Source: a candidate division FCPU426 bacterium (GTDB lineage: Bacteria > Oederibacteriota > Muellerivitia > Muellerivitales > Muellerivitaceae). From it: a stretch of 64,000 nt of DNA. The DNA lies in the NCBI GenBank assembly GCA_963738405.1, contig CAVTWJ010000018.1, forward strand, positions 76,294-140,293, given 5' to 3'. The position numbers and the translations under genes are program-made. This document shows positions 10,736 to 41,935 of this stretch, piece by piece. Numbering within the stretch: the first letter of the stretch is position 1; each line of letters starts with the position of its first letter. A model generated the notes under the pieces. That model ran no database searches, was not told where the DNA came from, and saw nothing but the letters and a program-made list of their open reading frames with translations.

Positions 10736-12834
10736 CTTCCTAACCCCAACTGTCCCATTTCATATTTCAACCAGGCGTTTCCCGGGGAAAGCTTCTGGGC
10801 CTTTTGGAAAATCTTTTTAGCTTCCGCTTTTTCGCCTTCTACGGCCAAGAGCTTGCCGTATTTTTCACATAGAGTCGCATCCTGGTAGCTTTTCCCAAAA
10901 GATTGATGGAATGTTTCCGAGAAATTATTCCAATTCGCCCAGTTATCCCCCGGGAAAAAAGTATTTTCCCAGGAAAAATTAAAAGCCAGTTTTTCGAAAT
11001 AACAAGATTGAAGAAAGGGGTCGGAAGGGATGGAGGGATAGGCCTGTAACATTTTTTCAAGGACCGCTTGGTGGGGTTTGCCGGTGGGGATATCCACCGA
11101 TTCCAAATTGATCTCCTGCTGAAACGTGTAATAACTTTTCCATCGCTCCAGGAAGGTCCTATTTACCGGAGTCACCGGTAAAATCCCGAGCGCGTGCCGG
11201 CTCAAGACCCCGGGTTGAGGGGTCCCGCCGTTGATCCAACGGCAGTCAGGGAGAGCCTGGGATAAAAAGGGTAGATAGTGGGTTTCCGTAAAGACCGCCG
11301 CCCATTTCACGTCTTGTCCCAGACGCTGGTTCCAGGCCGCGTTGAAAGGGTAGGAACAATAGGCCAGCGAGTAATTTTGGGGGCTGGGAACCATATCCGA
11401 AAAGATCCAACCGGGTCCCTCCGCCCTCGCCAGGTTGTCCAGACTCCTATATCCGTCCCGGTACTCGCTGAAATCGACCTGGGCGGGATTCGGAAGAAAT
11501 AACCGATTGAGGTCCCAAACCGCCGAAGAACCCAGCACCACGACCAGCAGGAGGGGACGTAATCGGCCTGGCAGGGATAAGACCAAGGTTTCTATTCCCA
11601 AGGCCAAAAAGATCAGCAGAAGGGGTAACGCTAGGAGCATCCGGTGGGCTTCCAGGTCCCTGGATAAAAGGCCGGGCAGGAGGAAGATGGGAAAGGCAAC
11701 CAAAAGAATTTTGGATAGTAATTTAAAGCGCCCTCGGACCATTTCAACGAATCCCAAAAGGAAAGCCGATCCCAATAAGGCGTTTAATAGCCCCCCTTGG
11801 GGCGCCAATTCCATCCCCGAGGTCCCGCCCCAAAAAATCGCCTGAAGATAACTGAAAGCGACCCGCGCCTGACCCCATAGGGTAAAAGAAGGATCATTCC
11901 AAGCCGCTACTTCATGCAAATGCCCGCCATAGCCCGTCCCAACCGCCGTGAGAAGAAAAGGAACCATTCCCCCCAAAAGAAAAATGAAAAAAAGTCCTCC
12001 GGCGGCCCACTCCGTTTTTTTCCAAAACCATCCGCCTGCCACCCCCAACCCAAATAGAGTTAATACGGGCCAAGCCATAAAGGTATAGGGCCCCAAGCCC
12101 AAGGCCAGCCCCAAGGCGCAGGCCCAAATTTTTCGGGAGGCGGGATTGGGGGACAAAGTCAAACGGCCGAACAGGTAAAGTACCCCCCATTCCCAAAAGG
12201 GAAGCAAAACCCCCGGTTCATCGCACCGGGAAAGAAGAAGGTCCCATAGGTTGAAAGCCGTTATAACCGCGAGGATTCCCGCGAGGGGCCTTGAAAAATA
12301 AAGGCGCGCGGCGGCATAGCTTAAAACCACGGTCAAAAACGAGACCAGGGCCGAGGGAATTTGGATTCCCAGAAGATTCGAACCCGTCAACCTTGCCGCG
12401 AAATAGAAAAGGTAACTGAGCGTGCTGGGAACCTGGCTTAGGATCACAAAAGGTTTCCATTGCCAATGGTCCATCCACTGGATGACCGACAGGGCCAAGA
12501 GGGAAGAGTCCCCTCCCGGCCAGCGGCTTAAGGAACCGATACCCCAAAATCTCACGAGGGCCGCGAACGTCAGGAGGAAAAACCAAACCCAGACTGGGAA
12601 GGAAGCGTTTTCGCCGGAACCCTTGGATCGAAGAAATGAACGATCCCTGGCCGGGGAAGAGGGGGATAAATAAATCAAAAGCAAGGGCAAGGCTAATCCT
12701 AAAAGAAGAATCCGGATTTTGGAGGGTGGGGAAAGCGGAGTCTGGGATAAAAGCGAAAGGCTGGCGGCCAGTATGATAAAACAAAGCCAAGCGGGAAATG
12801 GAATCGACCGGGCTGTTATTTTGTTTTTTTTCAC
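10732..12834 (-). CDS. polytopic membrane glycosyltransferase-like protein (GT39/ArnT-like fold) with a C-terminal TPR-like tail
   Basis: About 12 hydrophobic segments are followed by a soluble C-terminal region. It is a paralog of 30845..32881. Its 3' end overlaps the addA stop, so the two genes converge. Confidence 0.55.
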   Translation of the reverse strand: MKKNKITARSIPFPAWLCFIILAASLSLLSQTPLSPPSKIRILLLGLALPLLLIYLSPSSPARDRSFLRSKGSGENASFPVWVWFFLLTFAALVRFWGIGSLSRWPGGDSSLLALSVIQWMDHWQWKPFVILSQVPSTLSYLFYFAARLTGSNLLGIQIPSALVSFLTVVLSYAAARLYFSRPLAGILAVITAFNLWDLLLSRCDEPGVLLPFWEWGVLYLFGRLTLSPNPASRKIWACALGLALGLGPYTFMAWPVLTLFGLGVAGGWFWKKTEWAAGGLFFIFLLGGMVPFLLTAVGTGYGGHLHEVAAWNDPSFTLWGQARVAFSYLQAIFWGGTSGMELAPQGGLLNALLGSAFLLGFVEMVRGRFKLLSKILLVAFPIFLLPGLLSRDLEAHRMLLALPLLLIFLALGIETLVLSLPGRLRPLLLVVVLGSSAVWDLNRLFLPNPAQVDFSEYRDGYRSLDNLARAEGPGWIFSDMVPSPQNYSLAYCSYPFNAAWNQRLGQDVKWAAVFTETHYLPFLSQALPDCRWINGGTPQPGVLSRHALGILPVTPVNRTFLERWKSYYTFQQEINLESVDIPTGKPHQAVLEKMLQAYPSIPSDPFLQSCYFEKLAFNFSWENTFFPGDNWANWNNFSETFHQSFGKSYQDATLCEKYGKLLAVEGEKAEAKKIFQKAQKLSPGNAWLKYEMGQLGLGS

Positions 12835-12978: not shown

Positions 12979-13911
12979 ATGACCCATCCCCATTCCACGA
13001 ACCATTCGCATCGATCCGAGACCCGTGAGCCAAGCGAGCGCATCCGCAAAACCCGAATGCTCTGGGCCATTGGGATTACCGGGGCCATCCTGATTTTAGA
13101 GGCGGTGGGAGGCGTGGTTTCGGGCTCGCTGGCCCTTCTTTCCGATGCCGGGCATATGCTGACCGACCTGGCGGCGCTTCTGATTTCCCTCGCCGCCATG
13201 ATGATGGCCGAGTGGCCCGCCAGTTCCCAGCATACCTACGGGTGGGCCCGCCTGGAGGTCTTGGCGGCGCTGGGCAACTCCATTACTTTCTTCTTTATGG
13301 TCGCCGGGGTGGGATGGGAAGCCATCCACCGCCTCTCCCATGCCGTTCTCCCCGACTGGAAGACCATGGGGCTGATCGCCTTCATCGGGCTTTTGGCCAA
13401 CGCACTTTCCGCCTGGTTCCTCCACGGCTCGGAGGAAGAAGATTTAAATATGCAAAGCGCCTGGATACACGTTCTGGGGGATTTGGCCTCCTCTGCCAGC
13501 GTTTTGATTGGGGTGACGGTCATCGCCGAAACCGGATGGGTCTGGGTGGACCCGATCTTGAGTTTGGGGATCGCCCTTCTCATCGGCTGGAGCGCCATTA
13601 AGCTTTTCAGGAAGGCCCTGCGGATTCTTTTGGAATCGGCGCCCCATGGCATCGCGCCCGAAGCGCTCCGTGAGGATCTGTTGAAGGAAATCCCCGAAAT
13701 CAAGGAAGTGCATCACGTGCATTTATGGGAAGTGGGTTCGGGGGAGATTCACTTGACGGCCCATTTGGTGGTGGAGGACCAAGCCTTGAGCCGGGTTCAG
13801 GAAATTATCCGCAAAGCCTCCCACCGGCTGGAGGAACACCAAGGCATTAGGCATTCCACCCTTCAAATGGAAACGATGATCCGCGTACCCATCAAGGGCC
13901 CGGCCGAATAG
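12979..13911 (+). CDS. cation diffusion facilitator (CDF) family metal efflux transporter (CzcD/ZitB-like)
   Basis: It has a His-rich N-terminus and six transmembrane segments with HxxxD-type motifs (HMLTDLAA, HVLGDLAS), then a C-terminal cytoplasmic domain. Confidence 0.85.
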   Translation: MTHPHSTNHSHRSETREPSERIRKTRMLWAIGITGAILILEAVGGVVSGSLALLSDAGHMLTDLAALLISLAAMMMAEWPASSQHTYGWARLEVLAALGNSITFFFMVAGVGWEAIHRLSHAVLPDWKTMGLIAFIGLLANALSAWFLHGSEEEDLNMQSAWIHVLGDLASSASVLIGVTVIAETGWVWVDPILSLGIALLIGWSAIKLFRKALRILLESAPHGIAPEALREDLLKEIPEIKEVHHVHLWEVGSGEIHLTAHLVVEDQALSRVQEIIRKASHRLEEHQGIRHSTLQMETMIRVPIKGPAE

Positions 13912-13921
13912 CCGTTTTTCC

Positions 13922-14284
13922 TCACCCGCCCCCCGTGCCGCTCAGCCATTCCTCCAATTGAACTTGAATGGCGGCCAGGCGTTTCACCCAGCGGTCGTGT
14001 AATTCATCGGATAACAGATTCTTTTTCAAACAGAGGGACATGAGGGGCACGCATTCATGGGCAAGCCCTAAGGCTTCCTTGAGATGCCGCTGGGTCTTGA
14101 GGGCGCTGGAGGAGGCTTTGGCCCGTTGGACCTGCTCCGGGAGCTCGTGAATCTGCCGTTTCAGACGGGAGACGGCCTCGTTTTTAACGGCCCAGGGAAG
14201 ATGCTGGTAAACCTTGTTGACCTCGCCCGCCAGGGCCTCGCATTGGGCCGGCAAGTCCAAATCCAGAAAATCGGAACGCGACAT
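13922..14284 (-). CDS. hypothetical helical protein (120 aa)
   Basis: This is an ORF downstream of hpnE. The sequence looks like amphipathic helices, and I recognise no family. Confidence 0.3.
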   Translation of the reverse strand: MSRSDFLDLDLPAQCEALAGEVNKVYQHLPWAVKNEAVSRLKRQIHELPEQVQRAKASSSALKTQRHLKEALGLAHECVPLMSLCLKKNLLSDELHDRWVKRLAAIQVQLEEWLSGTGGG

Positions 14285-14319: not shown

Positions 14320-15657
14320 TTAAGGCTTTGGCTGGAGGAAGGATCGTACTTTCTCGGCGGCTCGGTGGCCTGAGAAGCAAGCGCCCTCAATGGTGGCGGG
14401 AAGGCCGGTGGCGGTGAAATCCCCGGCCAAAAACACGTTTTCAAAAACCGTTTCGCAGGTGGGGCGACACGAGACGTTCTCCGGGGTTAATTCGACTGTC
14501 GCGGCCATTTCCTTCACTACCTTGGAATGAAGTCTTTGGGCGCCTTGAGCCAGGGGAAAATGGCGCTGTAATTCTTCCACGGCCGTCACCAAAAGTTCCT
14601 TATCGTTTTTCACGGCCAAATCCATGTCCGCGCTGGCGACCAGGCTTAAATATTGTCCCGGGCCTGCGTAGCCCCAATTGGCGTTGCGGTTGAAGACCCA
14701 CTCGAAATGGGCGCCGGGGAGCCCGGCCCAATGGCCTTTCATCACAGGCCGGTCGAGCAAGAGATTTACGGAAAGAATCGGAGAGCGGCCCATTTGTTCT
14801 GCCGAAACCGGGGAGGGAAGATCGGACGTGGTCCAGAGGGCCTCCAGGGACCGGGGGGGGAGGGCCAAGACGAGGGCGTCGCCGGAGAAAATTTTGCCCG
14901 AGGCTGTTTCTACCTCGAAAGGTCCGCTGACCAGCCGGAGGTGGCGGGCCCCATCCCCCAAATGGATCATTCCCCCTTTTTCTTTCAAGTAGCTTTCAAC
15001 TTTGGGAAAGGCCAATTCGCTTAAGGGTTTGGCGGGCAGGGCGATAGCGCTCTGGGCGCGGGTTCCAAAAAAGGCCCTGTGCAGGGCCTCCCCGAATTCC
15101 AAAAGGGAGGATCGTTCGGGCTGCAGGTTCATGACGGCCCGGCAGAGGGGATCCCAGAATCTTTCACGGGAAATCGGCCCCTGACGGGTATGGACCAAAA
15201 ACTGGCCCACCGTTTGGAGGCCCTTAGCAATTGAAAAGGGGCGCCGGGCGAAGGGCTGGAGCGCCCGGGCCAGGGAAAGTTTTTCCCCCATGGGAAAGGC
15301 CTTGGTTTTCAGCAAGCCCACCGCCAGATGGAAGGGAGCCGGAAGATTGGCGCAGGAAAAGGAGGCGGGTACGCCGCCGGGGCTCATCCAGGTGATTTCC
15401 AGCGGGTTGATCCAATGGAAGGAGTTTTCGAATTCCAAGCGCTTGAAAAGCGCCCAGGTGTCTTTGTAACAGCCCAGGAACAGATGGGGACCGTTGTCGC
15501 AGGGAGCTGGAAAGGAATCTCCCGGCGCGATGGTGTAGACCCGGCCGCCGAGGGAAGAGCGGGTCTCCAAAAGTTCCACCCCGATTCCCTGCTCGGCCAA
15601 GGCGGTGGCGGCGGCCACCCCGGAGTAACCTCCTCCCACCACAATAACCCGGCTCAT
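14320..15657 (-). CDS. hpnE: FAD-dependent hydroxysqualene dehydroxylase HpnE (amine-oxidase/phytoene-desaturase family)
   Basis: The N-terminus is a dinucleotide-binding motif (VIVVGGGYSGVAAA ... LGGR). It is the last gene of the hpnC-hpnD-hpnE arrangement. Confidence 0.75.
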   Translation of the reverse strand: MSRVIVVGGGYSGVAAATALAEQGIGVELLETRSSLGGRVYTIAPGDSFPAPCDNGPHLFLGCYKDTWALFKRLEFENSFHWINPLEITWMSPGGVPASFSCANLPAPFHLAVGLLKTKAFPMGEKLSLARALQPFARRPFSIAKGLQTVGQFLVHTRQGPISRERFWDPLCRAVMNLQPERSSLLEFGEALHRAFFGTRAQSAIALPAKPLSELAFPKVESYLKEKGGMIHLGDGARHLRLVSGPFEVETASGKIFSGDALVLALPPRSLEALWTTSDLPSPVSAEQMGRSPILSVNLLLDRPVMKGHWAGLPGAHFEWVFNRNANWGYAGPGQYLSLVASADMDLAVKNDKELLVTAVEELQRHFPLAQGAQRLHSKVVKEMAATVELTPENVSCRPTCETVFENVFLAGDFTATGLPATIEGACFSGHRAAEKVRSFLQPKP

Positions 15658-15676
15658 GCGTTTTCTCCCCCGGGCC

Positions 15677-16513
15677 TCAAGCGAATACCTTCCCCAGCGA
15701 ACAGCGGCCCAGGGCGCCCACCACCGAAAGAACCTTATCCGCGCGGGAAAGGGATCTTTTTCCCTCGAGTATGGTGAAGGGTTGGTCGTAAAGCCGCTGG
15801 TAGAGCTTCACATAAACTGCCGCGATGGCCTCGGCGGTGGGAAGCTCAGCCCTTTGTTTAGTGGAAAGGGCGGCGCGGGATTTCAACAGGAAACCCAGGG
15901 CCCTGTCCAATTGGAACCGTACGAAGGCCGGCCAATGGGAATCGCCCTTTTGAATGTTTTCCGGAACCAGATGAAATTGACGAAAGTCGGAAAGGGGGAA
16001 ATAAAGCCTCTTGAATCCTAGGTCTTCCTTAAAATCGCGGGTCACGTTGACGAGCTGGAGAAAAACACCGAGGTTTTCGGCATAGACCCGGTGGGCTTCA
16101 TCCTTAAACCCGAATATTTCCATGCTAGCCAAACCAGGCCCTCCCGCCACTTGCAGGGCGTAAGAATGGAGTTCCTTGAAATTTTTAAATCGCAGGGGTT
16201 TTAAATCCCTGGCGATGCCGTTCAAGATGCGTTCCAGAGGCTCGGACGAAAGGTTGAAATCCCGGATCACTTCCTGAAATGAGGTAAACAGGGGATCTTT
16301 CGATTTTTGCAAAAAAGCTTTTTTGAGTTCCGCCCTGAACCGGGCGAGCCGGGATTTCTTTTGGGCGGAGGTGCCTTCCCCGTCGGCGATCTCGTCCGCG
16401 TTCCAGCAAAAACGGTAAAGGGACTCCATGGCTGCCCTTTTTTGGGGGGATAGAAGAAGGAGGGGGAAATAAAAACTCGATTTTTTTTCCAGGGAATCTT
16501 TTTGGGGATTCAC
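15677..16513 (-). CDS. hpnD: presqualene diphosphate synthase HpnD (squalene/phytoene synthase family)
   Basis: It has the SSFYFPLLLL block characteristic of HpnD and Asp-rich motifs of the trans-isoprenyl diphosphate synthase head-to-head family. Confidence 0.8.
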   Translation of the reverse strand: MNPQKDSLEKKSSFYFPLLLLSPQKRAAMESLYRFCWNADEIADGEGTSAQKKSRLARFRAELKKAFLQKSKDPLFTSFQEVIRDFNLSSEPLERILNGIARDLKPLRFKNFKELHSYALQVAGGPGLASMEIFGFKDEAHRVYAENLGVFLQLVNVTRDFKEDLGFKRLYFPLSDFRQFHLVPENIQKGDSHWPAFVRFQLDRALGFLLKSRAALSTKQRAELPTAEAIAAVYVKLYQRLYDQPFTILEGKRSLSRADKVLSVVGALGRCSLGKVFA

Positions 16514-17596: not shown

Positions 17597-18706
17597 ATGG
17601 AAAAAATGAACTTTTCTAAACCATTCGTATTAGGAGCCGTGACTTCCTTTTTGGGACTCGTTTTATTAAGCGAGATGCTTCTTCGCCTGACGGTTCCAAC
17701 GGGTTTCTGGTACCGCCATTTCGACTTATCCGCCGATTTCACAAGTTTGGCCGAGGTTCAAGACCGGTTGCGTTACGGGGCCCAGGGAAACCCTGTCGTT
17801 TTTGTAATGGGTGACAGCGTATTGGGGGCCAGCGCCCTCATGGAACACCGCCTCCCAGGAGCCCGAACCCTGACTTTGGGGCGTTCCCTGGGCCGTGAGC
17901 TGGAACCGGATGGCATTCATGCCCTGACCCTTGGCGCCGATGGAATTCTTTTGCCAGATCTTTTGGCCCTTACCAGCGAGTTTCTTCCCCAATATGAAAA
18001 GATCTCAAATGGGCTTAAACCGCAAAAAATACTTTTGCTGCTGAATTTTCGTATGTTTTCTCAGGAATTCGCGTCCGGTCCCAAAGCCCTTTCCAGGGAA
18101 TTTTTAAAGGAAAATTTGCCTCTTTCCCTGGCGGCGGCGCTTGGGACCGATCCTAAGAAGACGGATGAAAACAGGCTCAGCGATAAACTTTTTGAATTCC
18201 TTTGCCGGCACTTCTTTCTTTTCCGCGAATCCCAAATGGCGAAGACCCTTTGGTATTACCCAAACCAGAAAGATTTTTTCCAGCGCCAGTTGGAGAAAGT
18301 CATGGGGCCGTCGAAAGAAGAGGAGGATTTGGTGGAAGCGGGCTTGAAACTCAAGATCGCGACCTATTACCAGGCCTACCACTGGCCGGAAGACGGGATG
18401 CCCTTTCTAAGTCTGGCGCTTTTATTACAAAGGTTGAAGGAATCCAATATCCCGGTCGATGTGATTTTAACTCCCCAAAACCCGGCCTTTTTAGGGGAAT
18501 ACTTGGACCGACCCAGTTTTGAATTCAACCGGAGGAATCTTCAGCTTTTCATGAAGGCCCATGGATTCAAGGGATTGGAGTACAGGGACTGGTCCAACCG
18601 ATATGAATCCCGCCTATTTCTGGATCATTGTCATTTGACCCCTGAGGGAAATCAGGCCTATGCCAGGGATTTGGCAGATCTGCTTGCGCGAAAGGAAAAA
18701 AGCTAA
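17597..18706 (+). CDS. membrane-anchored SGNH/GDSL-family hydrolase or acyltransferase
   Basis: It has an N-terminal transmembrane helix, a block-I motif (FVMGDSV) and a C-terminal block-V DxxH (DHCHLT). It is adjacent to an MBOAT gene. Confidence 0.55.
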   Translation: MEKMNFSKPFVLGAVTSFLGLVLLSEMLLRLTVPTGFWYRHFDLSADFTSLAEVQDRLRYGAQGNPVVFVMGDSVLGASALMEHRLPGARTLTLGRSLGRELEPDGIHALTLGADGILLPDLLALTSEFLPQYEKISNGLKPQKILLLLNFRMFSQEFASGPKALSREFLKENLPLSLAAALGTDPKKTDENRLSDKLFEFLCRHFFLFRESQMAKTLWYYPNQKDFFQRQLEKVMGPSKEEEDLVEAGLKLKIATYYQAYHWPEDGMPFLSLALLLQRLKESNIPVDVILTPQNPAFLGEYLDRPSFEFNRRNLQLFMKAHGFKGLEYRDWSNRYESRLFLDHCHLTPEGNQAYARDLADLLARKEKS

Positions 18707-27051: not shown

Positions 27052-27297
27052 ATGGAAACCATGGAAAAAGTTGTTTTAAACACCGATATTTTGGCGGGGA
27101 TGGACGGGAAAGTGAATGAAGCTTCCGTCCAACTGAAATATCCCCAATTCAATCCAGAAGATTACCGGGGCAAGCATGTGGTGGTAAAGGGCTGCGCGCC
27201 CACCTGGACGGTGATGCTGCTTCAGCATAAGCTTCAGGGGGTCGCGGTCAAGTTATCGTTCGTTTTGTATGACGGCAAGGAATACCCCATTTATTGA
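27052..27297 (+). CDS. small hypothetical protein (about 81 aa)
   Basis: This is an ORF upstream of the lipoate ligase-like gene. I recognise no family. Confidence 0.3.
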   Translation: METMEKVVLNTDILAGMDGKVNEASVQLKYPQFNPEDYRGKHVVVKGCAPTWTVMLLQHKLQGVAVKLSFVLYDGKEYPIY

Positions 27298-27352
27298 TTT
27301 TGCCTCGCGGTTTTATCCCCCAAGTCCCCATCTCAAACCTAAAATCTCCTCT

Positions 27353-28027
27353 ATGATCGCTTGGCGCTATATACCTTCCCGTTTCGTTCCCGCTATGGGA
27401 CAAATGGCCTACGATGAGGAGCTTTTTTCTCAGTTCAGGCCAAGTGATTTCCCAATTCTAAGGTTTTTTATTTTCCAAAAACCCACGCTTACCCTGGGGC
27501 GATTGGAAGCCAGACGATTGAACCTCCAAAACTTACCCTTTCCTCATGAAATCCGCCCTACCGGCGGCCGGGGGGTTCTCCACGGGTCGGGCGACCTTTG
27601 TTACACACTCCTAGCCTCTAAGAAAGATCCGATTGTTGGAGGGGGACTCATAGAAAGCTATTGCCGTATCGGAAAAATATTGTCCCGGGGCCTTCAATCA
27701 CTGGGGCGGGACGTCCAGATGACCGAGGAGAAACATTTAGGGATGGGTGATCCACATTGCTTTTCGGCTCCCAGCCAGGCGGAGCTGACCTTGAACGGAA
27801 AAAAAGTAGCGGGCGGTGCCCAGGCCCGGCGGGAAGGCGTTTTTCTTCAACAGGGGGTCATTCTTTTTAAAGTGGCGGATGAATGGAAAAAAGCATTTCC
27901 AGGATCAGGATTTGAAGCCATGACAGGATTGAACGAGGACCCGGTTCAACCTTCGATAACCCCCAACGACTTGGAACAAACGTTACTTTACTCTTTTGAG
28001 GAAGAAAAAATCCGGTTTCATGAATGA
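27353..28027 (+). CDS. lipoate-protein ligase / octanoyltransferase family protein (LplA/LipM-like BPL catalytic domain)
   Basis: It has the BPL_LplA_LipB motifs (RPTGGRGVLHGSGDLCY, NGKKVAGGAQ). The track ORF starts at 27269, and the MIAWRY start was chosen from family length. Confidence 0.65.
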   Translation: MIAWRYIPSRFVPAMGQMAYDEELFSQFRPSDFPILRFFIFQKPTLTLGRLEARRLNLQNLPFPHEIRPTGGRGVLHGSGDLCYTLLASKKDPIVGGGLIESYCRIGKILSRGLQSLGRDVQMTEEKHLGMGDPHCFSAPSQAELTLNGKKVAGGAQARREGVFLQQGVILFKVADEWKKAFPGSGFEAMTGLNEDPVQPSITPNDLEQTLLYSFEEEKIRFHE

Positions 28028-28129: not shown

Positions 28130-29419
28130 ATGAAGAAATTCGATGCCATGGTGATCGGCGGCGGGCCCGGTGGCTATATGGCGGCCCTGCGCTTGGCGCG
28201 CCAAGGCAAAACCGTGGCCCTATTTGAGAAAAAGAAAATTGGAGGTTCCTGCCTCCATGTGGGTTGCATCCCCACCAAACTTCTTCAATCCGCCGCGACT
28301 CGCTTCCACACCTTTTCCAAAGAAGGAAAGTCTTGGGGTATCGAAGCCGAAAATATAAAAATGAATTTTCAAACTTTGACTGAGCGAACCCGAAAAACAA
28401 TCGACATCCTTGAAAAAGGAATTCAATTCCAATTGGTGGCCGCAAAGGTTGAAGTGATCCAGGGAGAAGCGAGCGTTAAGGGTCCCGACCTGGTTCTATG
28501 CGGAGGGGAAGAATACAAGGGCGGTCTTCTCGTCCTCGCCCTGGGTTCCAGGCCCCGCCGCCTTTCCGATTTTCCCATCGGTGAAACCATCGTGACCAGC
28601 GATGAGCTGTTGGTTCAGCCACGCCTTCCCAAATCCCTTCTTATCGTCGGCGCGGGGGTTATCGGCCTGGAATTCGCCTGCCTCTACGCCCAATTGGGAA
28701 CCAAAGTGCGGGTGGGGGATGTGCTGCCAAATATCCTTCCGACGATGGATGAGGATGCCGCCCAGCAATTATTGAATTCCATAAGGCGGCTTGGAGTGGA
28801 AATCGAATTAGGTTTAGCCCGGGTCCAGGCGAAAGATGAGGAACTGATTTTGGTGGCGGCTGGTAGGGTGCCCAATTCGGACCAAGCCGATCTCCCTGCC
28901 CTTGGGTTGGAGCTCCAAGGTTCCAAAATCAGAACCAACGGGCACCTGCAAACATCCCTTCCTGGGGTTTACGCTATCGGGGATTTAACGGGAAACTACC
29001 CTTACGCCCATTCGGCCTACGAACATGCCCGGCTAGTGGCCCGGCACCAAGAACCGGGCGGAGATTCGGAGGTTTTGGACGATAACCGAATTCCCCACGT
29101 GGTTTTTACCTCTCCGGAAATCGCCTCGGTTGGTTTGACGGAAAAGGAAGCCAGGGCAAAATATCCCAATGTGACAGTTCATAAAAACAACTTTGCCGCC
29201 AACAGTAAGGCCCGCATCTTGGGGGACATTCAAGGTTGGGGCAAGATCCTATCGGATGGGATTTCGGGAAGGATTTTAGGCGTTCAACTCGTGGGCCCCG
29301 AGGCGACGGACCTGATTGGCGAGGCGTGTTTAATCATTTCCAAGGGGGTCACTTTAGGGGAGCTGGAAAGGGTTGTTCATCCTCACCCAACCCTTAACGA
29401 GATATTCGGCCTCCACTAA
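28130..29419 (+). CDS. lpd: dihydrolipoyl dehydrogenase (E3, pyridine nucleotide-disulfide oxidoreductase)
   Basis: It has the FAD-binding GGGPGG motif, the redox-active disulfide motif (GGSCLHVGCIPTK), an NAD-binding domain and a C-terminal HPHPTLNE dimerisation motif. Confidence 0.8.
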   Translation: MKKFDAMVIGGGPGGYMAALRLARQGKTVALFEKKKIGGSCLHVGCIPTKLLQSAATRFHTFSKEGKSWGIEAENIKMNFQTLTERTRKTIDILEKGIQFQLVAAKVEVIQGEASVKGPDLVLCGGEEYKGGLLVLALGSRPRRLSDFPIGETIVTSDELLVQPRLPKSLLIVGAGVIGLEFACLYAQLGTKVRVGDVLPNILPTMDEDAAQQLLNSIRRLGVEIELGLARVQAKDEELILVAAGRVPNSDQADLPALGLELQGSKIRTNGHLQTSLPGVYAIGDLTGNYPYAHSAYEHARLVARHQEPGGDSEVLDDNRIPHVVFTSPEIASVGLTEKEARAKYPNVTVHKNNFAANSKARILGDIQGWGKILSDGISGRILGVQLVGPEATDLIGEACLIISKGVTLGELERVVHPHPTLNEIFGLH

Positions 29420-29546
29420 ATATAAAAAACCTCAAAATTCCTAGAATTATGATCCAAATGAGGGCTTTAGATTTTTGGTTTTCAACCGTTAGGAATTACA
29501 TCAACATCCGGTAGGGTTATTCGAAATCAGGCGATGAGGTCCAATT

Positions 29547-29900
29547 TTGAAAAAAATGACTTTTTTTCTCTTCCTTTTCCTGGGCACGGCCGCTTTCGCC
29601 AACCCACCTTTAAAGGTGATTTCCAGCACAACCACCACGACCCATTTTCTCATGAAATGGCCCTACCACACAGTGACCACTTATAACGCTACCCAAACAA
29701 AGCCTTATTATTCGACGGGCCGAATCCTTTATCTGGTGACCCATCAGGATGTTTCAAAATATCGATATTATTACCCTCAAAATACCTGCCAAAACGAATG
29801 GGGTTATTTCTTCCCGCCTGGAACCAAACTTTGCAGTCACCGTCCCGCCCGAGCCTTTGGCGAACCAGATTCTTACGTTGTTGAGATTTACTCCAAGTAA
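29547..29900 (+). CDS. secreted hypothetical protein (low GC, Tyr-rich)
   Basis: The ORF has a signal peptide (MKKMTFFLFLFLGTAAFA) and AT-rich composition. It lies in an accessory islet. Confidence 0.4.
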   Translation: MKKMTFFLFLFLGTAAFANPPLKVISSTTTTTHFLMKWPYHTVTTYNATQTKPYYSTGRILYLVTHQDVSKYRYYYPQNTCQNEWGYFFPPGTKLCSHRPARAFGEPDSYVVEIYSK

Positions 29901-30077
29901 GTTTCCCCCTTGCGGCCCCAAAGCTGACGGGTTGGCTTTACCAACCTTTGTAACAGGTTTCCATCCCCTATGTAACATCTGGTTAACAAACCTTTCCGAC
30001 AATAATACACAACCACACCGACCCAACGCCCTTCAACGCCTACTTAACACTTTATCCTGTAGGGCCTTGGAGGACGT

Positions 30078-30266
30078 ATGTTGAAGCTAGACCAATTCTC
30101 GGAATGCGTCTTGTTCCAATGCGACCGGTGTCGGCATGTGGGAGAACTTTTCACCGACATCGTCGAGGAGGACGGCAGTTACCACTGTTGGAGCTGCCTG
30201 AACGAGATGAAAAGGTCGGGGAAAAAAACCAGCGAAGAAAAGGAAACACATGTTATTAACGGATAA
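30078..30266 (+). CDS. small zinc-ribbon-like protein (CxxC ... HCxxC), paralog 1
   Basis: It is 62 aa with a CDRC ... HCWSC motif, and is paralogous to the next ORF. Confidence 0.4.
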   Translation: MLKLDQFSECVLFQCDRCRHVGELFTDIVEEDGSYHCWSCLNEMKRSGKKTSEEKETHVING

Positions 30267-30432
30267 AAGCCCCAAAGGCGAACCGTTGTTTGAGTGCGAG
30301 GAATGCCGTGCCGTCGGCGAAATAGGAAATATTTTTATTGATGAGAAGGGATCGCATCACTGTCTCTCATGCTGGTGCGAGCGCAACTTGAGCAGGGCCA
30401 AGCAGCGCCGTTTGATCGTCGTTGAGCGTTAA
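30250..30432 (+). CDS. small zinc-ribbon-like protein (CxxC ... HCxxC), paralog 2
   Basis: It is 60 aa with a CEEC ... HCLSC motif. Its start overlaps the end of paralog 1 by 17 nt. Confidence 0.4.
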   Translation: MLLTDKSPKGEPLFECEECRAVGEIGNIFIDEKGSHHCLSCWCERNLSRAKQRRLIVVER

Positions 30433-30544
30433 GTTTTTCCCGCCGGGCCGGGGATCCCCCGGCCGTTAGAGATGTTCCGTCCGTAAATCAAAATGGCCTA
30501 ATCTATTCAATGATTTTTTTGCCTTCTAAGTCAGGGTTCATCAT

Positions 30545-30691
30545 CCCATGCCCGCAAATTTTTGGTCTGGGCACTTGCGCTGGGAATATTCTTTGTCCCA
30601 GGAATTAATAAAGATTATAGGGCGGTCACGGGGGTCTCTCGTTTTCAAAACCTGCATCAGCGTGTCGAAGGTTTCCGGGTCCCCCACGAGC
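30545..30691 (-). pseudogene. about 150-bp remnant copy of the 3' end of prfC
   Basis: The segment aligns by eye, in the same orientation, with 32919..33067, the C-terminal codons of intact prfC. I estimate about 75-80% identity. Confidence 0.6.
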
Positions 30692-30844
30692 TAAACAATG
30701 TCGTCTGATTGCCGTGGAGCATTACGCCTTTTCCATCGGGCCAGGATTCCCGCATCCGTTAAAGAAAGTCTTTAAGCAGTGTTTTTACCCATATAAAAAT
30801 TATTAAAATTTCCTTTAATAACCTTGAAGGGCCAGTTTTGCCGC

Positions 30845-32881
30845 CTAAACAAAACTTTTCTTTGACTCTTCATCTCGTTTTTGAAATTGAAGGCATAATC
30901 CCAGGTTGTAGTAAAGTTGGGCGGCCGGTATTCCCAAATGGATTGCGTTCTTAAATGCTTGAGTTGCTTGCACGAAATGACCGTCCAAAACCTTGAAAAA
31001 CGCGAGTTTTTCCCAGTAGACCGCGGTTAAAAAGCGGTCGGCGGGAAAGGAATCGGGTAGGGTTGGCCGGGACTCCAAAAAACTAGCCCATCGTTCATTC
31101 TGCCTTTTATTCATAACCTCAAACTGGGCATCACCGTAAACCCGGTCGGCGCTTTTCCAAGCTTCAAGCATAGGCGGGGGAATTTGGGCTGTTGGAATTA
31201 AAAATACCGCAAAAGGTTTGGGGTCCTCTGGACGACGTTTGTCTGTATCAAGGATTTTCCACCTCACGCCGGGAAATCTTTTCTCGAAATAAGGCGCGTA
31301 ATGAGCGTTGGTGATCAATGCAGTCCAAGAAGGGTTTGGATTCCTTAGGGATGGGTTGTGGATCGCGTCAAAGGGGTAACATGCGACATCTAATGTTCTA
31401 TTTACATAGTCCGTGTTGAACTCGGTGAAAAGGTTGAGGGAACCTTCCGGTTTGCTGAACGCCTTTAAAATTCGATAAGCGTCGTAATATTGAAAATTTC
31501 GCCATTGCTGGTTCAAATTTCCGCATAGCCGGATATCGTCATATAAATTGAAGAAATGATAAAAATTGAGGAGAGTGGGTGTCAGCAATAGACCGAGGAA
31601 AGCCCATTTCCTTAAAGGAAAAGATATATTTGTAAAAAGGTCACGGAGACCGAATGAAGCAAAAAGCATAAAAAAAATGAACACAGGCGTGGCTCTCTGC
31701 AATTCCAATCCGTTGGAAAGGATGCCGGGAAAAAGGGAAAGAAAGGTTCCGGAAACCAAAAGAAAAAAAACCTTTCGGTCTAAACACCGTGCCGAGTATA
31801 AAATTCCATTTAAAACAAGGGTTCCGGTCACTGCGTCAAAATACCCGCCCCAAATGGGGCCAAGGGGATAACTGTCCTTTCCGTTCAAAAAAAATCCACG
31901 AAGATACGAGAAAAAAGAAGAAAAAAATGATGAACTAATAACATTTTCTTGAAGGTGCTGGGTCGCTCCGGGTGCAAAACGAGCGAGGACTAAGGGCAAG
32001 GAAAGCGCCAACGAAAGAACAATAAATAGAAAACCTTGGGATCTTTTAATTCGATCGGGATAAGAAAAGATGACCATCGCAAAGAATAACCAGGCGACGA
32101 TCCAATTGGTGTAACTATAAAATCCAAAGCCGCACCAAATTCCCAAAACCACTGTCCAAAACCAAGAATTGGAATTTCTTTGGGTTTTCATGAGGATTCC
32201 CAAAAGAATGAAGGCGATGAGTTGAAAAAGCGGGATTAAGTCATTGGGAGTGCACTGACGGGAGAAGCCGATCTCCCAAAAGGATAGGGTAACAAACCAG
32301 CAAAAGACAAAAGCGAGAAAAGGCTCAAAAACTCGTTTTGCGGCGGCATAGGCCGAACCGCCGATGGCGATTGATATAAGGACGGTAAAAAACCTTTGCG
32401 TCAGCAGTGAAACTCCGACCCATCGATAGAACAAAGCTAACAACCATAGCAGCAGGGGTTCCATCTGACCTTGGGCCCAAAGAAGAGTAGTGCTCCACTT
32501 TTTCATGAGGCCGATCGCCAAAAAAGAAAAAATACCTTCGTCAGTTAGGGGCCAAAAAGGGATGCTGGACAATCGGTAAAACCTTGAGAAAACAAAAAAA
32601 ACAAAGAAGAGAATCCAAAAGAAAGGGAATAAATGGATTGTCTTTTCAAAAGTTGTTTCCGGCACATCTTTCAATTTTCTCGTACGGATTCCAAAAAAAA
32701 TGCCCAATAGGAAAGGAAGAAAAAGACCCATCCATCCAATCCATAGAATGGCTTGTGGAGGAAGTGAAAAATAAGATAGAAGAACGTTGGAAGCTAGAAA
32801 CAAGCAGAAGTAGGGCCAGGGATTAAAGTGTGGATGTTTTTTAAGGAGAACTAAAATATTCTGAAAATCTTTCATAGGCAT
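30845..32881 (-). CDS. polytopic membrane glycosyltransferase-like protein with a C-terminal TPR-like tail (paralog of 10732..12834)
   Basis: Its architecture matches the other paralog, and the C-terminal soluble domains are alignable (YFEKLAF / YWEKLAF). Confidence 0.55.
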   Translation of the reverse strand: MPMKDFQNILVLLKKHPHFNPWPYFCLFLASNVLLSYFSLPPQAILWIGWMGLFLPFLLGIFFGIRTRKLKDVPETTFEKTIHLFPFFWILFFVFFVFSRFYRLSSIPFWPLTDEGIFSFLAIGLMKKWSTTLLWAQGQMEPLLLWLLALFYRWVGVSLLTQRFFTVLISIAIGGSAYAAAKRVFEPFLAFVFCWFVTLSFWEIGFSRQCTPNDLIPLFQLIAFILLGILMKTQRNSNSWFWTVVLGIWCGFGFYSYTNWIVAWLFFAMVIFSYPDRIKRSQGFLFIVLSLALSLPLVLARFAPGATQHLQENVISSSFFSSFFSYLRGFFLNGKDSYPLGPIWGGYFDAVTGTLVLNGILYSARCLDRKVFFLLVSGTFLSLFPGILSNGLELQRATPVFIFFMLFASFGLRDLFTNISFPLRKWAFLGLLLTPTLLNFYHFFNLYDDIRLCGNLNQQWRNFQYYDAYRILKAFSKPEGSLNLFTEFNTDYVNRTLDVACYPFDAIHNPSLRNPNPSWTALITNAHYAPYFEKRFPGVRWKILDTDKRRPEDPKPFAVFLIPTAQIPPPMLEAWKSADRVYGDAQFEVMNKRQNERWASFLESRPTLPDSFPADRFLTAVYWEKLAFFKVLDGHFVQATQAFKNAIHLGIPAAQLYYNLGLCLQFQKRDEESKKSFV

Positions 32882-32923
32882 GCGTGGATTTTAACATAGG
32901 TTTTTAAGACCTTTTGGAAAGTT

Positions 32924-34525
32924 TCAACCCATGTCCACTAATTTGTGATCGGGGCATTTGCGCTGGGTGTATTCCTTTTCCCAGGAAGTCTTAAAAAGAA
33001 TCACGGGACGGTCGTGTCGGTCGCGCGTTTTCAAAACCTGCACTGGCGGGTCGAAAGTCTCTGGATCTCCCACGAGCCAGGCGCTGGATTGGTAAGGAAG
33101 AAGTTCTAAATGGCTTTCAGCGCTGTACTCGTTTTTAAGGCGATACTGCAATACGTCAAACTGCAAGCGCCCCACGGCGGCAACGTAAATATCTAGATCA
33201 TTCCAACTTTTTAACAATTGGACCGTTCCTTCTTCGGTCATCTGCTGCAAACCCTTATCAAAAGATTTGCGCTTGGAAACGTCCTTCGGCCTCACTTGGG
33301 CGAAGATTTCGGGTTGGAACTGAGGCAGGGGCTTGAAGTCGAACCCGCCTTCCAGCGAAAGGGTGTCGCCGATGGAAAAAACGCCGGGATTGATCACGCC
33401 CACGATGTCGCCCGGATAGGCCACGTCTAGGATGTTACGGTCTGAGGCCAGCATGGAGTGGGGGCGGGAAAGGCGCAGTTCCTTGTTTAAACGGTGGTGC
33501 TTGACCACCAGGTCCCTTTCGAACCGGCCTGAGCAGACCCGCATAAAAGCGGTGCTGTCACGGTGTTTGGGGTTCATGTTGGCTTGAAGCTTAAAGACAT
33601 AAGCTGAAAAGGGTGTCTCCACCGGGTCCACCAGGATCTCCTCACCCGAGGGGGTGTCGGCAATGCGTGCCCCGGGGGGAGGGGCCATTTCCACAAAGGC
33701 GTCGAAAAAAGGTTCCACCCCGAAATTGGTCAGGGCGGAGGCGAAGAAAACCGGAGTGACTTCGCCGTTTAAGAATTTACCCGGTTCAAAGGGGTTCCCC
33801 GCCACTTCGAGCAATTCCAGGTCATGCCTCAGCTTTTCCAGAAGTTCAGGATTTAGGCGGGATTCGGTCGCCGGGTCTTTCAGGGAAAGGCGTTCCACCG
33901 AGGCCTTGGCCGCTCCCCCTACTGAAACCTTTGCGAACATCAACAGTTCCTGGGTGCGCCGGTCCATGACGCCCGAAAAATCCCTGCCGCTTCCCACGGG
34001 CCAATTGATGGCGGAAGAGCCGATCTTTAAGACTTGTTCCACTTCCTGCATCAGGTCCAGAGGATCGCGCCCTGGCAGATCCATTTTGTTGATAAAGGTC
34101 ATGACAGGGATGCCCCGCAAGTGGCAAACATCGAAAAGCTTGCGGGTCTGGGTTTCCACGCCCTTGGCGGCATCGATCACCATGATGGCGCAATCGGCGG
34201 CGGTGAGGGTACGGTAAGTATCTTCCGAGAAATCTTGATGGCCAGGGGTATCCAACACGTTGATGATGGCGTTCTTGTAGGGAAACTGCATGGCCGAGGC
34301 GGTGATAGAAATACCGCGCTCCTGCTCCATGCCCATCCAGTCGGACACGGCGACTTTTCCGCCCTTGCGGCCCCGCACCATGCCCGCAGTTTGGATCATG
34401 CCCGAATACAAGAGCAGCTTTTCGGTCAATGTGGTTTTGCCGGCGTCCGGGTGGCTGATAATGGCGAAAGTCCGCCGTTTGGCGATGGCGTTTTTGATTT
34501 CAACGGTTAAGGCGGGGTCGGTCAT
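32924..34525 (-). CDS. prfC: peptide chain release factor 3 (translational GTPase)
   Basis: The N-terminus has the G1 motif (RRTFAIISHPDAGKTTLTEKLL), followed by DTPGH and NKMD GTPase motifs. Confidence 0.9.
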   Translation of the reverse strand: MTDPALTVEIKNAIAKRRTFAIISHPDAGKTTLTEKLLLYSGMIQTAGMVRGRKGGKVAVSDWMGMEQERGISITASAMQFPYKNAIINVLDTPGHQDFSEDTYRTLTAADCAIMVIDAAKGVETQTRKLFDVCHLRGIPVMTFINKMDLPGRDPLDLMQEVEQVLKIGSSAINWPVGSGRDFSGVMDRRTQELLMFAKVSVGGAAKASVERLSLKDPATESRLNPELLEKLRHDLELLEVAGNPFEPGKFLNGEVTPVFFASALTNFGVEPFFDAFVEMAPPPGARIADTPSGEEILVDPVETPFSAYVFKLQANMNPKHRDSTAFMRVCSGRFERDLVVKHHRLNKELRLSRPHSMLASDRNILDVAYPGDIVGVINPGVFSIGDTLSLEGGFDFKPLPQFQPEIFAQVRPKDVSKRKSFDKGLQQMTEEGTVQLLKSWNDLDIYVAAVGRLQFDVLQYRLKNEYSAESHLELLPYQSSAWLVGDPETFDPPVQVLKTRDRHDRPVILFKTSWEKEYTQRKCPDHKLVDMG

Positions 34526-36404: not shown

Positions 36405-36968
36405 ATGTCTAATTCTGTGGGAATTCCGACGGATTATGATCCCTCAAAAGACCCTATCGAAATCGTTGAATATGACTCCACATGGCCCGAAAAGTTTGCT
36501 CTGGAAAAAAGGGCCATTATCCATACTTTGGGTTTTATACCCGGCTTGAAGGTTGAGCATTTTGGAAGCACATCGGTGCCCGGTCTGGCGGCTAAGCCTA
36601 TTCTTGACATCATAGTGGGAGTTTCTCACAAAAAAGATTGGCCCAAACTAATAAAGCCTCTCGAGATGGCAGGTTATGTTTATTGGGAAGAGAACCCCAA
36701 AACGGACGAGATGTTTTTCGTTAAGGGAATGCCTCCCTTTGGAAAAAAACGAACCCATCATGTTCATATCTATGAGCTTTACGAGGAACGCTGGAACAGG
36801 GAACTGTCTTTCCGGGATTATCTAATCGCTCATCCGAATGAAGCCAAGAACTATGAATCGATCAAAAAGAATTTAGCTACGCGATTTCAATATGACCGTG
36901 AGGCCTATACGAAATGGAAGAAGCCTTATATTGAGACGGTTATGACAAACATAAATAAAGGGATTTAA
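36405..36968 (+). CDS. grpB: GrpB-family protein (UPF0157; minimal nucleotidyltransferase fold)
   Basis: It has the GrpB motifs (VEHFGSTSVPGLAAKPILDI). The gap after gcvT is 4 nt, and the gene's GC is lower than its neighbours. Confidence 0.7.
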   Translation: MSNSVGIPTDYDPSKDPIEIVEYDSTWPEKFALEKRAIIHTLGFIPGLKVEHFGSTSVPGLAAKPILDIIVGVSHKKDWPKLIKPLEMAGYVYWEENPKTDEMFFVKGMPPFGKKRTHHVHIYELYEERWNRELSFRDYLIAHPNEAKNYESIKKNLATRFQYDREAYTKWKKPYIETVMTNINKGI

Positions 36969-40762: not shown

Positions 40763-41935
40763 TTAAGGATTCCACTTCTTTTCCATTTCCTTATATTCAG
40801 GCGTGTTAATAATGTTTTTAAATTGGGTGTCATCATATATTTGTTTTTTATAGGTCGGATCTAAAAGATAAATCTGACGTATTTCTTCGATCGCTTTCGT
40901 GTTTTGAGATTGTGCCCAATAAACAATTGCCAGATTGTAGTGGGACATTATTAAATTAGGATTGATATAAAGGGATTGTTGCAGTGCTATCTTGGCGTCA
41001 TCTAATTGTCCATTTCTATAATAGGAATAGCCAATCAACCCATATGTTTCTGCATCCTGTTTTTTGTCATCGAGTGCCTTTTTATATTCAGAAATCGCGT
41101 TAATGTATTGGTGTTTTAAATATAACTTTTTTCCTACTGCTATATGATCTGTTTCCACTACCCATTTTAGAAATGAGTTGTCCGAATGACCTGAAGTTAT
41201 AACGTAATCTGTGTTTTTTTTAATGTCGTAAACATGTATTTGACGGTCACCAAAAGCTAATGGCCCTCCATCCACCCAAACAATCCAATTTCCTTCATCG
41301 GAAATTATGAATTCTTGGCCTGTTCCAATATGAATCATGGATTTTGCTTCGGGATTATATTGGTAAAAATTATCTGCCCGTATATCCGTCGTTCCACCAG
41401 GCAATGAAAGAAAAAACAAATCGTGATAGTTAGCCCAACCCAAAAATTCCCAATCAAACAAGCTGGATTCTGTGCCTGCCAATTTGATAATTTTATTTAT
41501 AGAATTATTTTTGTAGCGAATACCTATTTCTGGTGATCCATCGAAACAAACTGACCACCTGCCATCAGTTGAGGAAATTAAAACTGGAGACTCAGCCGTG
41601 GCAGATGCGATTTCGTTTTCCAAACTAATTAAATCATGTCGCTTTTCGAATCTAGGATCAAATTGGGATGTGTAATCGGGTAAAGATTGATCTTGGAAAT
41701 AAGTTCCATCTGATTTGACCAAATTGGGTTTAAAAATACTTTTTCCTTTATGTTGGTAAACTCTGCGCCAAATATAAAAAGATGGAAAATCAGGTTTGTC
41801 TTTGACCAAATTTCCTTGAATCACTTTAATCGTTTTTGCGGTAACTGCTTCAGATTGAGCATTCAAGTAAGGGGTTGGAAATGTGTATAGAGAGACTATA
41901 AAGAGAAGTAATAAGCTCAATATTTTTCTAAACAT
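40763..41935 (-). CDS. secreted hypothetical protein with C-terminal TPR repeats (low GC, about 35%)
   Basis: It has a signal peptide and TPR-like repeats (AETYGLIGYSYYRNGQLDDAKIALQQSLYINP...). Its composition contrasts sharply with gcvP and lipA. Confidence 0.5.
   Translation of the reverse strand: MFRKILSLLLLFIVSLYTFPTPYLNAQSEAVTAKTIKVIQGNLVKDKPDFPSFYIWRRVYQHKGKSIFKPNLVKSDGTYFQDQSLPDYTSQFDPRFEKRHDLISLENEIASATAESPVLISSTDGRWSVCFDGSPEIGIRYKNNSINKIIKLAGTESSLFDWEFLGWANYHDLFFLSLPGGTTDIRADNFYQYNPEAKSMIHIGTGQEFIISDEGNWIVWVDGGPLAFGDRQIHVYDIKKNTDYVITSGHSDNSFLKWVVETDHIAVGKKLYLKHQYINAISEYKKALDDKKQDAETYGLIGYSYYRNGQLDDAKIALQQSLYINPNLIMSHYNLAIVYWAQSQNTKAIEEIRQIYLLDPTYKKQIYDDTQFKNIINTPEYKEMEKKWNP

Follow-up and report, generated by a model that had tools for sequence, protein, structure and literature searches.

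O-antigen and capsule loci are variable, are bounded by conserved genes and are exchanged by homologous recombination in the flanks. Integrative conjugative elements of the SXT/R391 type, of about 100 kb, carry an integrase and occupy the 5' end of prfC. In Escherichia coli conjugation, 109-950 bp duplications of a homologous locus are formed by a single crossover with recircularised molecules (PMC3240628). Classic homology-facilitated illegitimate recombination (HFIR) comprises an insertion together with a deletion of recipient DNA (PMC3240628); the studies cited for it in PMC5361080 and PMC3240628 are de Vries & Wackernagel 2002, Prudhomme et al. 2002 and Meier & Wackernagel 2003. In Rhs orphan tips (Jackson et al. 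2009) and in the effector-immunity arrays of the Vibrio cholerae type VI secretion system (T6SS) (PMC5361080), modules enter behind a conserved gene. The locus described here belongs to a candidate division FCPU426 bacterium (GenBank assembly GCA_963738405.1, contig CAVTWJ010000018.1) and lies in a stretch of 64,000 nucleotides, positions 76,294 to 140,293 of that contig, which is called the window and numbered from its first letter. It comprises a membrane glycosyltransferase-like (GT) gene placed behind prfC, the gene of release factor 3, and followed by a second, dead copy of the prfC 3' end.

We consider it probable that a related lineage was the source of this GT cassette, which would have entered through recombination with its anchor in prfC and one illegitimate join. 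The loci of relatives are referred to by L-numbers, where L001-L019 come from species-representative genomes, L082-L102 from metagenome contigs of a second scan, and L081 is a contig of 5552 bp from the Logan assembly of run ERR11718638. The features of the locus, with the evidence for each, are the following:

30250-30432, plus strand: zr2, a zinc-ribbon open reading frame (ORF), native and intact; the orthologs of relatives adjoin zr1, sec117 and lpd in most cases.
30433-30540, no strand assigned: native intergenic region between prfC and zr2, containing the shared bidirectional terminator hairpin GGCCGGGGATCCCCCGGCC at about 30446-30464; colinear with L001 11603-11752, the sequence next to the intact prfC of L001.
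30541-30691, minus strand: remnant of the prfC tail, 49 codons and the stop, one codon deleted; repeat search, alignment and profile match (E 8.9e-28).
30692-30765, plus strand: dead copy of the zr2 3' end and degenerate copy of the bidirectional terminator; local alignment to 30409-30472 and alignment with L001 and L082.
30766-30844, minus strand: non-coding 3' flank of the GT gene, putatively donor-derived; no similarity in the loci of relatives.
30845-32881, minus strand: GT-C / PMT_2-type membrane glycosyltransferase-like gene, 678 aa, the inserted cargo; Pfam PMT_2.
32882-32923, minus strand: spacer of 42 nt between prfC and the GT gene, with TGTTAAAAT at 32888-32896; near-identical to the L008 spacer.
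32924-33077, minus strand: the prfC tail that is repeated, in its intact version, about the last 49-50 codons and the stop; repeat search and alignment.
32924-34525, minus strand: prfC, intact, 533 aa; Pfam GTP_EFTU (7e-54), RF3_C (7e-37) and EF-G_D2.

Read in the orientation of prfC, the order is intact prfC, spacer with promoter, GT, 80 nt, dead terminator and dead zr2 end (zr2'), joined to the dead prfC tail, the intergenic region, the terminator and zr2. In L001, the closest relative, the interval between zr2 and prfC is an empty site: prfC is followed by 150 nt and then by zr2, and neither the GT gene nor a remnant was identified. The downstream flank of the window remnant (30433-30540, 108 nt up to zr2) is colinear with this L001 intergenic region, through a common hairpin GGCCGGGGnnCCCCGGCC, so the remnant and what lies downstream of it represent the empty-site junction. 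On the other side of the joint, 30702-30765 copies the zr2 3' end and terminator at 30409-30472 (46 of 64 positions identical, a score reached by none of 2000 shuffles). Since the zr2 end and terminator are thus copied between the GT gene and the remnant, the locus is an occupied allele (prfC-GT-terminator-zr2') joined head-to-tail to an empty allele. The first-pass annotation had described only the duplication of the prfC 3' end around the GT gene; the second duplicated piece was missed in it, and a simple duplication is not supported as an adequate description.

The direct repeat itself is real. Its first copy had been given correctly in that annotation, and the second, placed there at 32919-33067, lies at 32924-33077. 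The repeat search returned two segments, 30541-30612 with 32924-32995 (79% identity) and 30605-30691 with 32991-33077 (75%), which in a MAFFT alignment are offset by a single in-frame indel of 3 nt. Aligned by codons, the two tails are identical at 112 of 147 positions (76%), and a DNA profile built from 20 functional FCPU426 prfC tails matches 30542-30696 on the minus strand with an E-value of 8.9e-28 (nhmmer). The remnant translates as LVGDPETFDTLMQVLKTRDPRDRPIIFIN-SWDKEYSQRKCPDQKFAGMG and a stop, and the real prfC tail as LVGDPETFDPPVQVLKTRDRHDRPVILFKTSWEKEYTQRKCPDHKLVDMG and a stop. The remnant lacks the first 484 codons of prfC and consists of an open frame of 48 aa (30541-30687) with a TAG just before it. 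The intact tail of the window is as similar to L001 (85%) and L082 (87%) as is the rest of prfC. At the protein level prfC is 93% identical to L001 and L082 and 79-88% identical to other FCPU426; the search of the species representatives returned L001 at 93%, L002-L019 at 75-88% and then Nitrospira at about 70%.

The dead zr2' reads AKQCRLIAVEHY and the native zr2 ends in AKQRRLIVVER and a stop; the sequence type from which the dead copy at 30692-30726 derives is that of roughly the last 12 codons of zr2. By our codon reading the two differ by 6 synonymous and 4 non-synonymous changes. The joint between zr2' and the remnant falls within 30688-30696, where a possible GnGCCA microhomology (GAGCCA in prfC, GGGCCA in zr2, at 30688-30693) is blurred by later decay.

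The pattern of substitution bears on where the two tails diverged. Differences between them number 5 at first, 7 at second and 23 at third codon positions, that is 12 against 23, with dN of 0.158 and dS of 1.18 by the Nei-Gojobori method (NG86). A duplication within the genome was simulated over a range of ages, with one copy in neutral decay and the other under an omega of 0.05. Runs with at most 12 changes at positions 1 and 2 and at least 23 at position 3 made up at most 0.03% at every age tried (P <= 3e-4). The third-position bias together with these simulations leads to the rejection of in-genome duplication followed by neutral decay. Constraint on the remnant is relaxed: remnant-specific changes at positions 1 and 2 number 11, against 1 on the branch of the intact window copy and 3 on the L001 branch; 4 changes of the remnant fall at nucleotides invariant in the 20 functional prfC genes, and one codon is deleted. 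The third-position difference between the window and L001 is 0.37-0.38. These values fit a history in which the copies would first have diverged as functional prfC genes of two lineages, separated by about the distance from the window to L001; one of them would then have lost its function and taken up some 0.1 substitutions per site by drift, and the changes in the dead zr2' would likewise tell this two-stage story. Of the two histories offered in the first-pass annotation, insertion at the prfC 3' end with a remnant left behind agrees with the empty site of L001, whereas duplication in place is contradicted by the codon positions. The GT types are also patchy with respect to the prfC tree, as the prfC of L008 is 90% identical to that of L004 and yet the best GT of L004 is 42% identical to that of L008; this patchiness is only supportive, since sorting of paralogs could give the same pattern.

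The structure recurs in relatives. Remnants were searched with the prfC tail profile, and the search was repeated with a profile of 41 sequences. Further, independent remnants were identified in four relatives, always on the prfC strand and directly behind a GT gene:

L004, 16295-16412, prfC strand: E 4.7e-5; carries a frameshift and ends 49 nt short of the third GT.
L082, 11851-11937, prfC strand: E 8.2e-7; before GTb, with 47 of 58 positions identical to its own prfC tail over 11880-11937.
L100, 7587-7699, prfC strand: E 8.2e-6; before GT2.
L092, 3944-4030, prfC strand: E 1.2e-4; the same prfC-GT-remnant-zr topology as the window.

All the remnants reach the stop, and they start at different positions of the profile (of 240): 82 in the window, 118 in L004, 154 in L082, 126 in L100 and 172 in L092. 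Each is closest to the prfC tails of its own clade, and those of L004, L092 and L100 carry frameshifts or stops. The junction partner at the remnant is zr2' in the window and in L082, and the GT stop itself in L100 and L092. The spacer between GT stop and remnant in L082 contains the terminator-like GGCCGGGGGA. In L082 a dead terminator/zr2' copy at 11759-11833 matches the native one at 16357-16432 (53 of 75 positions, none of 2000 shuffles). In the L082 recipient, GTb and GTc separate the tail from the terminator by 4.4 kb, and so the zr2' piece must have come with the donor. The GTs that flank the remnants of L004, L082 and L100 are only 26-35% identical and the remnants match prfC at 64-81% of nucleotides, which makes the remnants much more recent than the GT paralogs. 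The low identity of these flanking GTs also rules out a tandem-duplication model for the arrays of these relatives. A repeat is missing from the majority of prfC-GT loci. With control profiles, for gcvT, lplA and the 548-aa ORF, no remnants were obtained.

As in the Rhs and T6SS arrays, modules are found behind a conserved gene, and older ones are repeatedly displaced downstream together with a 3' fragment of the anchor (L004, L082, L100). The displaced prfC fragment precedes GT3 in L004, GTb in L082 and GT2 in L100, and the old zr2 junction in the window and L092. The differences are that the anchor here is a housekeeping translation factor whose tail is conserved, and that the cargo is a separate GT-C gene with its own putative promoter, lacking a toxin tip or immunity pair.

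Exchange by homologous recombination is evidently active at this locus, to judge from aligned loci. L100 and L015 share about 93% of nucleotides over prfC and GT1; the similarity breaks exactly at the end of GT1, before the L100 remnant, and homology resumes inside GT2. Between L100 7563-9049 and L015 13662-15037, the last third of GT2 is shared, but its first two thirds, like the intergenic region, are wholly different. This makes GT2 a mosaic gene from internal recombination.

The cargo is a protein of 678 aa whose sole Pfam match is PMT_2 (PF13231; 34.2 bits against a cut-off of 26.1, residues 142-298); it has no match in NCBIfam and no sequence match in the PDB. A crude hydropathy scan gave at least 8 windows with a Kyte-Doolittle value of at least 1.6 in residues 45-389, followed by a soluble C-terminal part of about 290 aa. 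The GC content at third codon positions (GC3) is 0.45, versus 0.57-0.75 in most genes of the window, about 0.6-0.7 in the neighbours and 0.59 in the paralog at 10732-12834, and this atypical value fits an origin outside the genome. The paralog, to which the first-pass annotation had drawn attention, is a true one, although distant (25% identity over 606 aa, E 3e-38) and unrelated to the event. As a source of the GT gene it was ruled out, the identity being only 25%. The nearest homologs are 52-53% identical, the closest being the GT of L008 (53%).

The 42-nt spacer between prfC and the GT gene matches that of L008 almost base for base (GTGTTAAAATCCACGCATG), and the prfC-spacer-GT junction matches L008 and others, including TGTTAAAATCCACGCATG. 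As this junction is shared, the donor genome already had the GT gene behind prfC. On the 3' side of the GT gene, a blastn search of the 153-nt flank against all loci gave no match. A remnant of an ABC-transporter gene, which follows the GT in relatives of the L008 type, was sought in this flank and none was found. An ABC-2-type transporter pair (ATPase and permease) lies between the GTs and zr2 in one clade (L004, L008, L009 and L015-L018; for example L008 13741-15370); it is absent from L001 and from the window locus, and no homolog was identified anywhere in the window.

An extended -10-like box, TGTTAAAAT (32888-32896, minus strand), stands 6 nt before the ATG of the GT gene. The pattern TGnTAnAAT, mostly as TGTTAAAAT, occurs 6-8 nt (once 10) before an in-frame ATG in 20 of the 29 GT genes of the prfC-downstream locus, and has a single match in the window. 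Relatives with this box before a GT are L004, L006, L008, L011, L015, L016, L082, L085, L092, L094, L096, L098, L100, L101 and L102. Its position supports a GT start at the ATG at 32881, which gives 678 aa, rather than the deposited 676 aa. The recurrent placement suggests that the GT cassettes are self-promoted and their mRNA leaderless. The terminator copied beside the GT gene is degenerate, and transcription probably continues across the dead tail as far as the native hairpin.

The event may be reconstructed as follows. The ancestor of the window would have been empty as L001, with prfC, an intergenic region with the terminator, and zr2. The donor would have been a related FCPU426 lineage with an occupied locus (prfC, 42-nt spacer with promoter, GT, terminator and zr2), about as distant as the window is from L001, that is at some 85% nucleotide identity in prfC. 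The incoming fragment would have started within the prfC tail and reached about 35 nt into the zr2 3' end; it would have recombined homologously within prfC, and its other end would have been joined illegitimately, at a GnGCCA-like microhomology, to prfC codon -50. This could occur by a Campbell route, in which the fragment was circularised and a single crossover took place in the prfC tail, or by HFIR, in which an illegitimate joint landing inside the homologous region would give the same product; a longer anchor, comprising all of prfC, would ease HFIR between sequences diverged by about 15%. The Campbell route fits best on topology alone, though both give the same product. In that product no recipient gene is lost, prfC is intact and all the neighbours seen in L001 are present, so that a duplication and not a deletion results. 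Afterwards the dead pieces would have gained about 0.1 neutral substitutions per site, which would place the event after the split from L001. This process has taken place repeatedly in the phylum: new GT cassettes are stacked directly behind prfC, and the old tail is displaced downstream along with the sequence that follows it. The lack of a scar at most prfC-GT loci would be expected where clean double crossovers predominate and scarred events are rare; this argument was also made for the V. cholerae T6SS arrays (PMC5361080).

Compared with the Campbell-type events of E. coli (PMC3240628), the insert is likewise flanked by a direct duplication of part of the homologous locus (about 155 bp here), the recipient keeps all its DNA, and the ends of the incoming fragment are joined head-to-tail. 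The present case differs in being read from sequence alone, in an uncultured phylum, and in a homology diverged by about 15%. With HFIR it would share one homologous anchor (prfC), one illegitimate joint, possibly at a short microhomology, and a foreign gene set beside a conserved one. Unlike the classic form, nothing is deleted and a duplication results, and the far end of the incoming DNA also had some homology. The scar is of a known kind, notable mainly for its clarity and for its recurrence at the end of one housekeeping gene.

Several points weigh against import from a related lineage. The search for a donor genome had no success, and identity to the nearest GT homologs is only 52-53%: a search of JGI metagenome contigs for the GT returned nothing, and a search of 5.8 billion proteins returned the protein itself and then 52% identity. 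Closer strains were not found either, as an exact-protein lookup of prfC gave none and that of zr2 only the 100%-identical Logan contig. No mosaic breakpoint is visible in the intact prfC against L001, L002 and L003, and the site patterns of the tails (with L001 and L082) locate no crossover, so either tail copy may derive from the donor, by either route. The argument from codon selection rests on just 49 codons. The empty site of L001 could in principle be secondary, by a pop-out between repeats, and the timing relative to the L001 split is inferred by comparing a decay of some 0.11 per site with some 0.26 synonymous changes per site per lineage. A tail of 155 nt at 80-85% identity is, moreover, a poor substrate for a single crossover.

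Another explanation is a tandem duplication within the genome at the prfC 3' end (of tail-GT or of tail-terminator-zr2'), with later loss or decay of a copy and no foreign DNA. The GT gene is indeed flanked by direct repeats in the same orientation, relatives hold 1-3 tandem GTs here, and a 300-bp duplication of tail, terminator and zr2' with a clean homologous insertion of the GT would give the same final map. The 12 against 23 codon-position pattern is opposed to it, and the remnant is followed by empty-site sequence and not by a GT. It does not account for remnants in L004, L082 and L100 far younger than the GTs beside them, nor for L082, where a small duplication cannot yield the zr2' copy, nor for the atypical GC3. 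For these reasons it is judged unlikely.

A broader proposal is that the FCPU426 prfC 3' end is a dedicated acquisition site, in which self-promoted, leaderless GT-C cassettes (TGTTAAAAT 6-8 nt ahead of the ATG) would be taken up, arrayed and reshuffled in an integron-like manner, lacking a linked integrase or with a recombinase in trans; the tail copies would be landing pads in later exchanges instead of debris, and the cell-surface glycan would be diversified. We regard this as quite doubtful.

Site-specific integration would require a small non-autonomous mobile cassette with a replacement tail, as known from islands that target tRNA genes or gene 3' ends, an integrase acting in trans and an att site at the prfC 3' end. 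The topology fits, with the gene rebuilt by a tail borne on the element and the native tail as distal repeat; the same gene end was hit in five genomes, and prfC is the integrase target of SXT/R391, at its 5' end. Relative to SXT/R391 the host gene is the same, but here it is the 3' end that is occupied, there is no integrase, the insert is of 2.2 kb and the boundaries vary. No recombinase gene is present in the insert, where the GT is the sole substantial ORF, and the neighbours are lpd, zr1, zr2, prfC and gcvT. The starts of the remnants and their junction partners vary, most prfC-GT loci have no repeat, and no common motif or hairpin was found at the five GT-remnant junction spacers. The absence of a recombinase and of a shared motif, with the variable boundaries and partners, makes this mechanism unlikely, and we would give it little credence.

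Retention of the remnant by selection, as a peptide of 48 aa (GTG start at 30687) or as an RNA or regulatory element, has in its favour the open frame, the in-frame indel and the excess of synonymous changes (dN/dS 0.13). A TAG stands immediately upstream, however, and by our reading there is no ribosome-binding site; the remnant is changed at sites invariant in all functional prfC genes, the remnants of L004, L100 and L092 are frameshifted or carry stops, and the synonymous excess is explained equally by divergence in another lineage before the event. The remnant region has no Rfam match, no notable promoter or terminator matches and a fold z of -0.9; an inverted repeat at 32901-32920 / 32978-32997 is not conserved, and no consensus structure was found around the prfC tails of 12 genomes. 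Such retention is hardly probable. An artefact of assembly or binning that joined strain variants with and without the GT is suggested by the metagenome-assembled source and by strain-variable hotspots being typical chimera sites, and is exceedingly improbable given that the separate single-run Logan assembly of ERR11718638 is identical to window 28609-34160 over 5.5 kb, both repeat copies and both junctions included, the structure thus being common to more than one assembly, that repeats 76% identical are too diverged to mislead an assembler, and that analogous structures exist in four genomes from other studies.

The recombination scar of the GT cassette is set in a conserved neighbourhood. 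Upstream of zr2 the window comprises:

27269-28027, plus strand: lplA; Pfam.
28130-29419, plus strand: lpd; Pfam.
29547-29900, plus strand: sec117, a secreted protein of 117 aa with a signal-peptide-like N-terminus; conserved core neighbour.
30078-30266, plus strand: zr1, a zinc-ribbon ORF; conserved core neighbour.

Beyond prfC follow an ORF of 221 aa and gcvT (ORF map; gcvT confirmed by Pfam). By tblastn, lpd, sec117, zr1 and zr2 on one side and prfC and gcvT, with or without the 221-aa ORF, on the other form a synteny conserved in the phylum. The first-pass annotation had included sec117 and the zinc-ribbon ORFs in an accessory islet of 29.4-32.9 kb; these genes are core synteny, adjoining lpd in nearly all FCPU426 relatives with or without a GT (tblastn; L001, L004-L018, L082-L101), and the accessory block comprises only the GT and its flanks, about 30692-32900. 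The two zinc-ribbon ORFs are tandem paralogs of the CxxC...CxxC type, of about 60 aa, which overlap by 17 nt (30078-30432); the pair is conserved beside lpd across the phylum, and its family assignment is limited to a weak DUF7685 match.

In contrast to its surroundings the prfC-zr2 interval is hypervariable, with 0, 1, 2 or 3 GT genes of the PMT_2 type, and L082, with a prfC 93% identical, yet has three different GTs. As at O-antigen and capsule loci, the set varies from genome to genome (0-3 GTs, 25-60% identical to each other), lies between conserved genes (prfC and zr2/lpd) and is patchy with respect to the prfC tree. Unlike those loci, the cassettes are single PMT_2 genes, and visible scars indicate that some exchanges were not clean double crossovers. 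L017 retains no more of a GT than its last 109 codons (13830-14156), beside an opposite-strand ORF of 680 aa inserted behind prfC, which is another sign of turnover at this hotspot. In L002 (downstream of prfC, about 14942-15772) and L003, the relatives next in closeness after L001, prfC is in a different neighbourhood, with neither gcvT nor the lpd/zr genes, so the surroundings of prfC were rearranged in that subclade; L002 has a transposase-like ORF near prfC.

A repeat of another kind was returned by the control profile for lpd. In several relatives the last 14 codons of lpd, approximately (HPHPTLNEIFGTH and a stop), are repeated in frame about 90 nt past the lpd stop: L087 13104-13237, L018 8431-8555, L009 15186-15320 (the same as L088), L016 18789-18899 and L015 about 18505-18590; the window has none. 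The repeat is preceded by a conserved, hairpin-rich and G-rich spacer, which begins with 13 nt that form the reverse complement of the lpd tail. Even in distant lineages each repeat co-varies with the lpd tail of its own locus, and compensatory changes are seen in several stems. A search of Rfam gave no match. The element may be a structured 3' element, or else an old scar that gene conversion has homogenised. Elsewhere in the window, where the mean GC content is 54%, three low-GC ORFs are candidates for further foreign genes: 6772-7302 (plus strand, 28%), 40763-41935 (minus strand, 35%) and 36405-36968 (plus strand, 42%).

The prfC-zr2 interval is thus marked as a hotspot with 0-3 PMT_2 glycosyltransferases per genome. 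Current understanding is not overturned; the locus is a clean natural example of mechanisms described from laboratory genetics and from toxin-immunity arrays. Its scars give the polarity (insertion rather than loss), an approximate age (later than the separation from the closest sequenced relative) and evidence that the donor and recipient lineages differed. They permit a base-level reconstruction of the swapping of surface-glycosylation genes in an uncultured phylum of soil and peat, where a conserved housekeeping gene anchors the exchange and a sloppy event now and then leaves a scar that can be dated.

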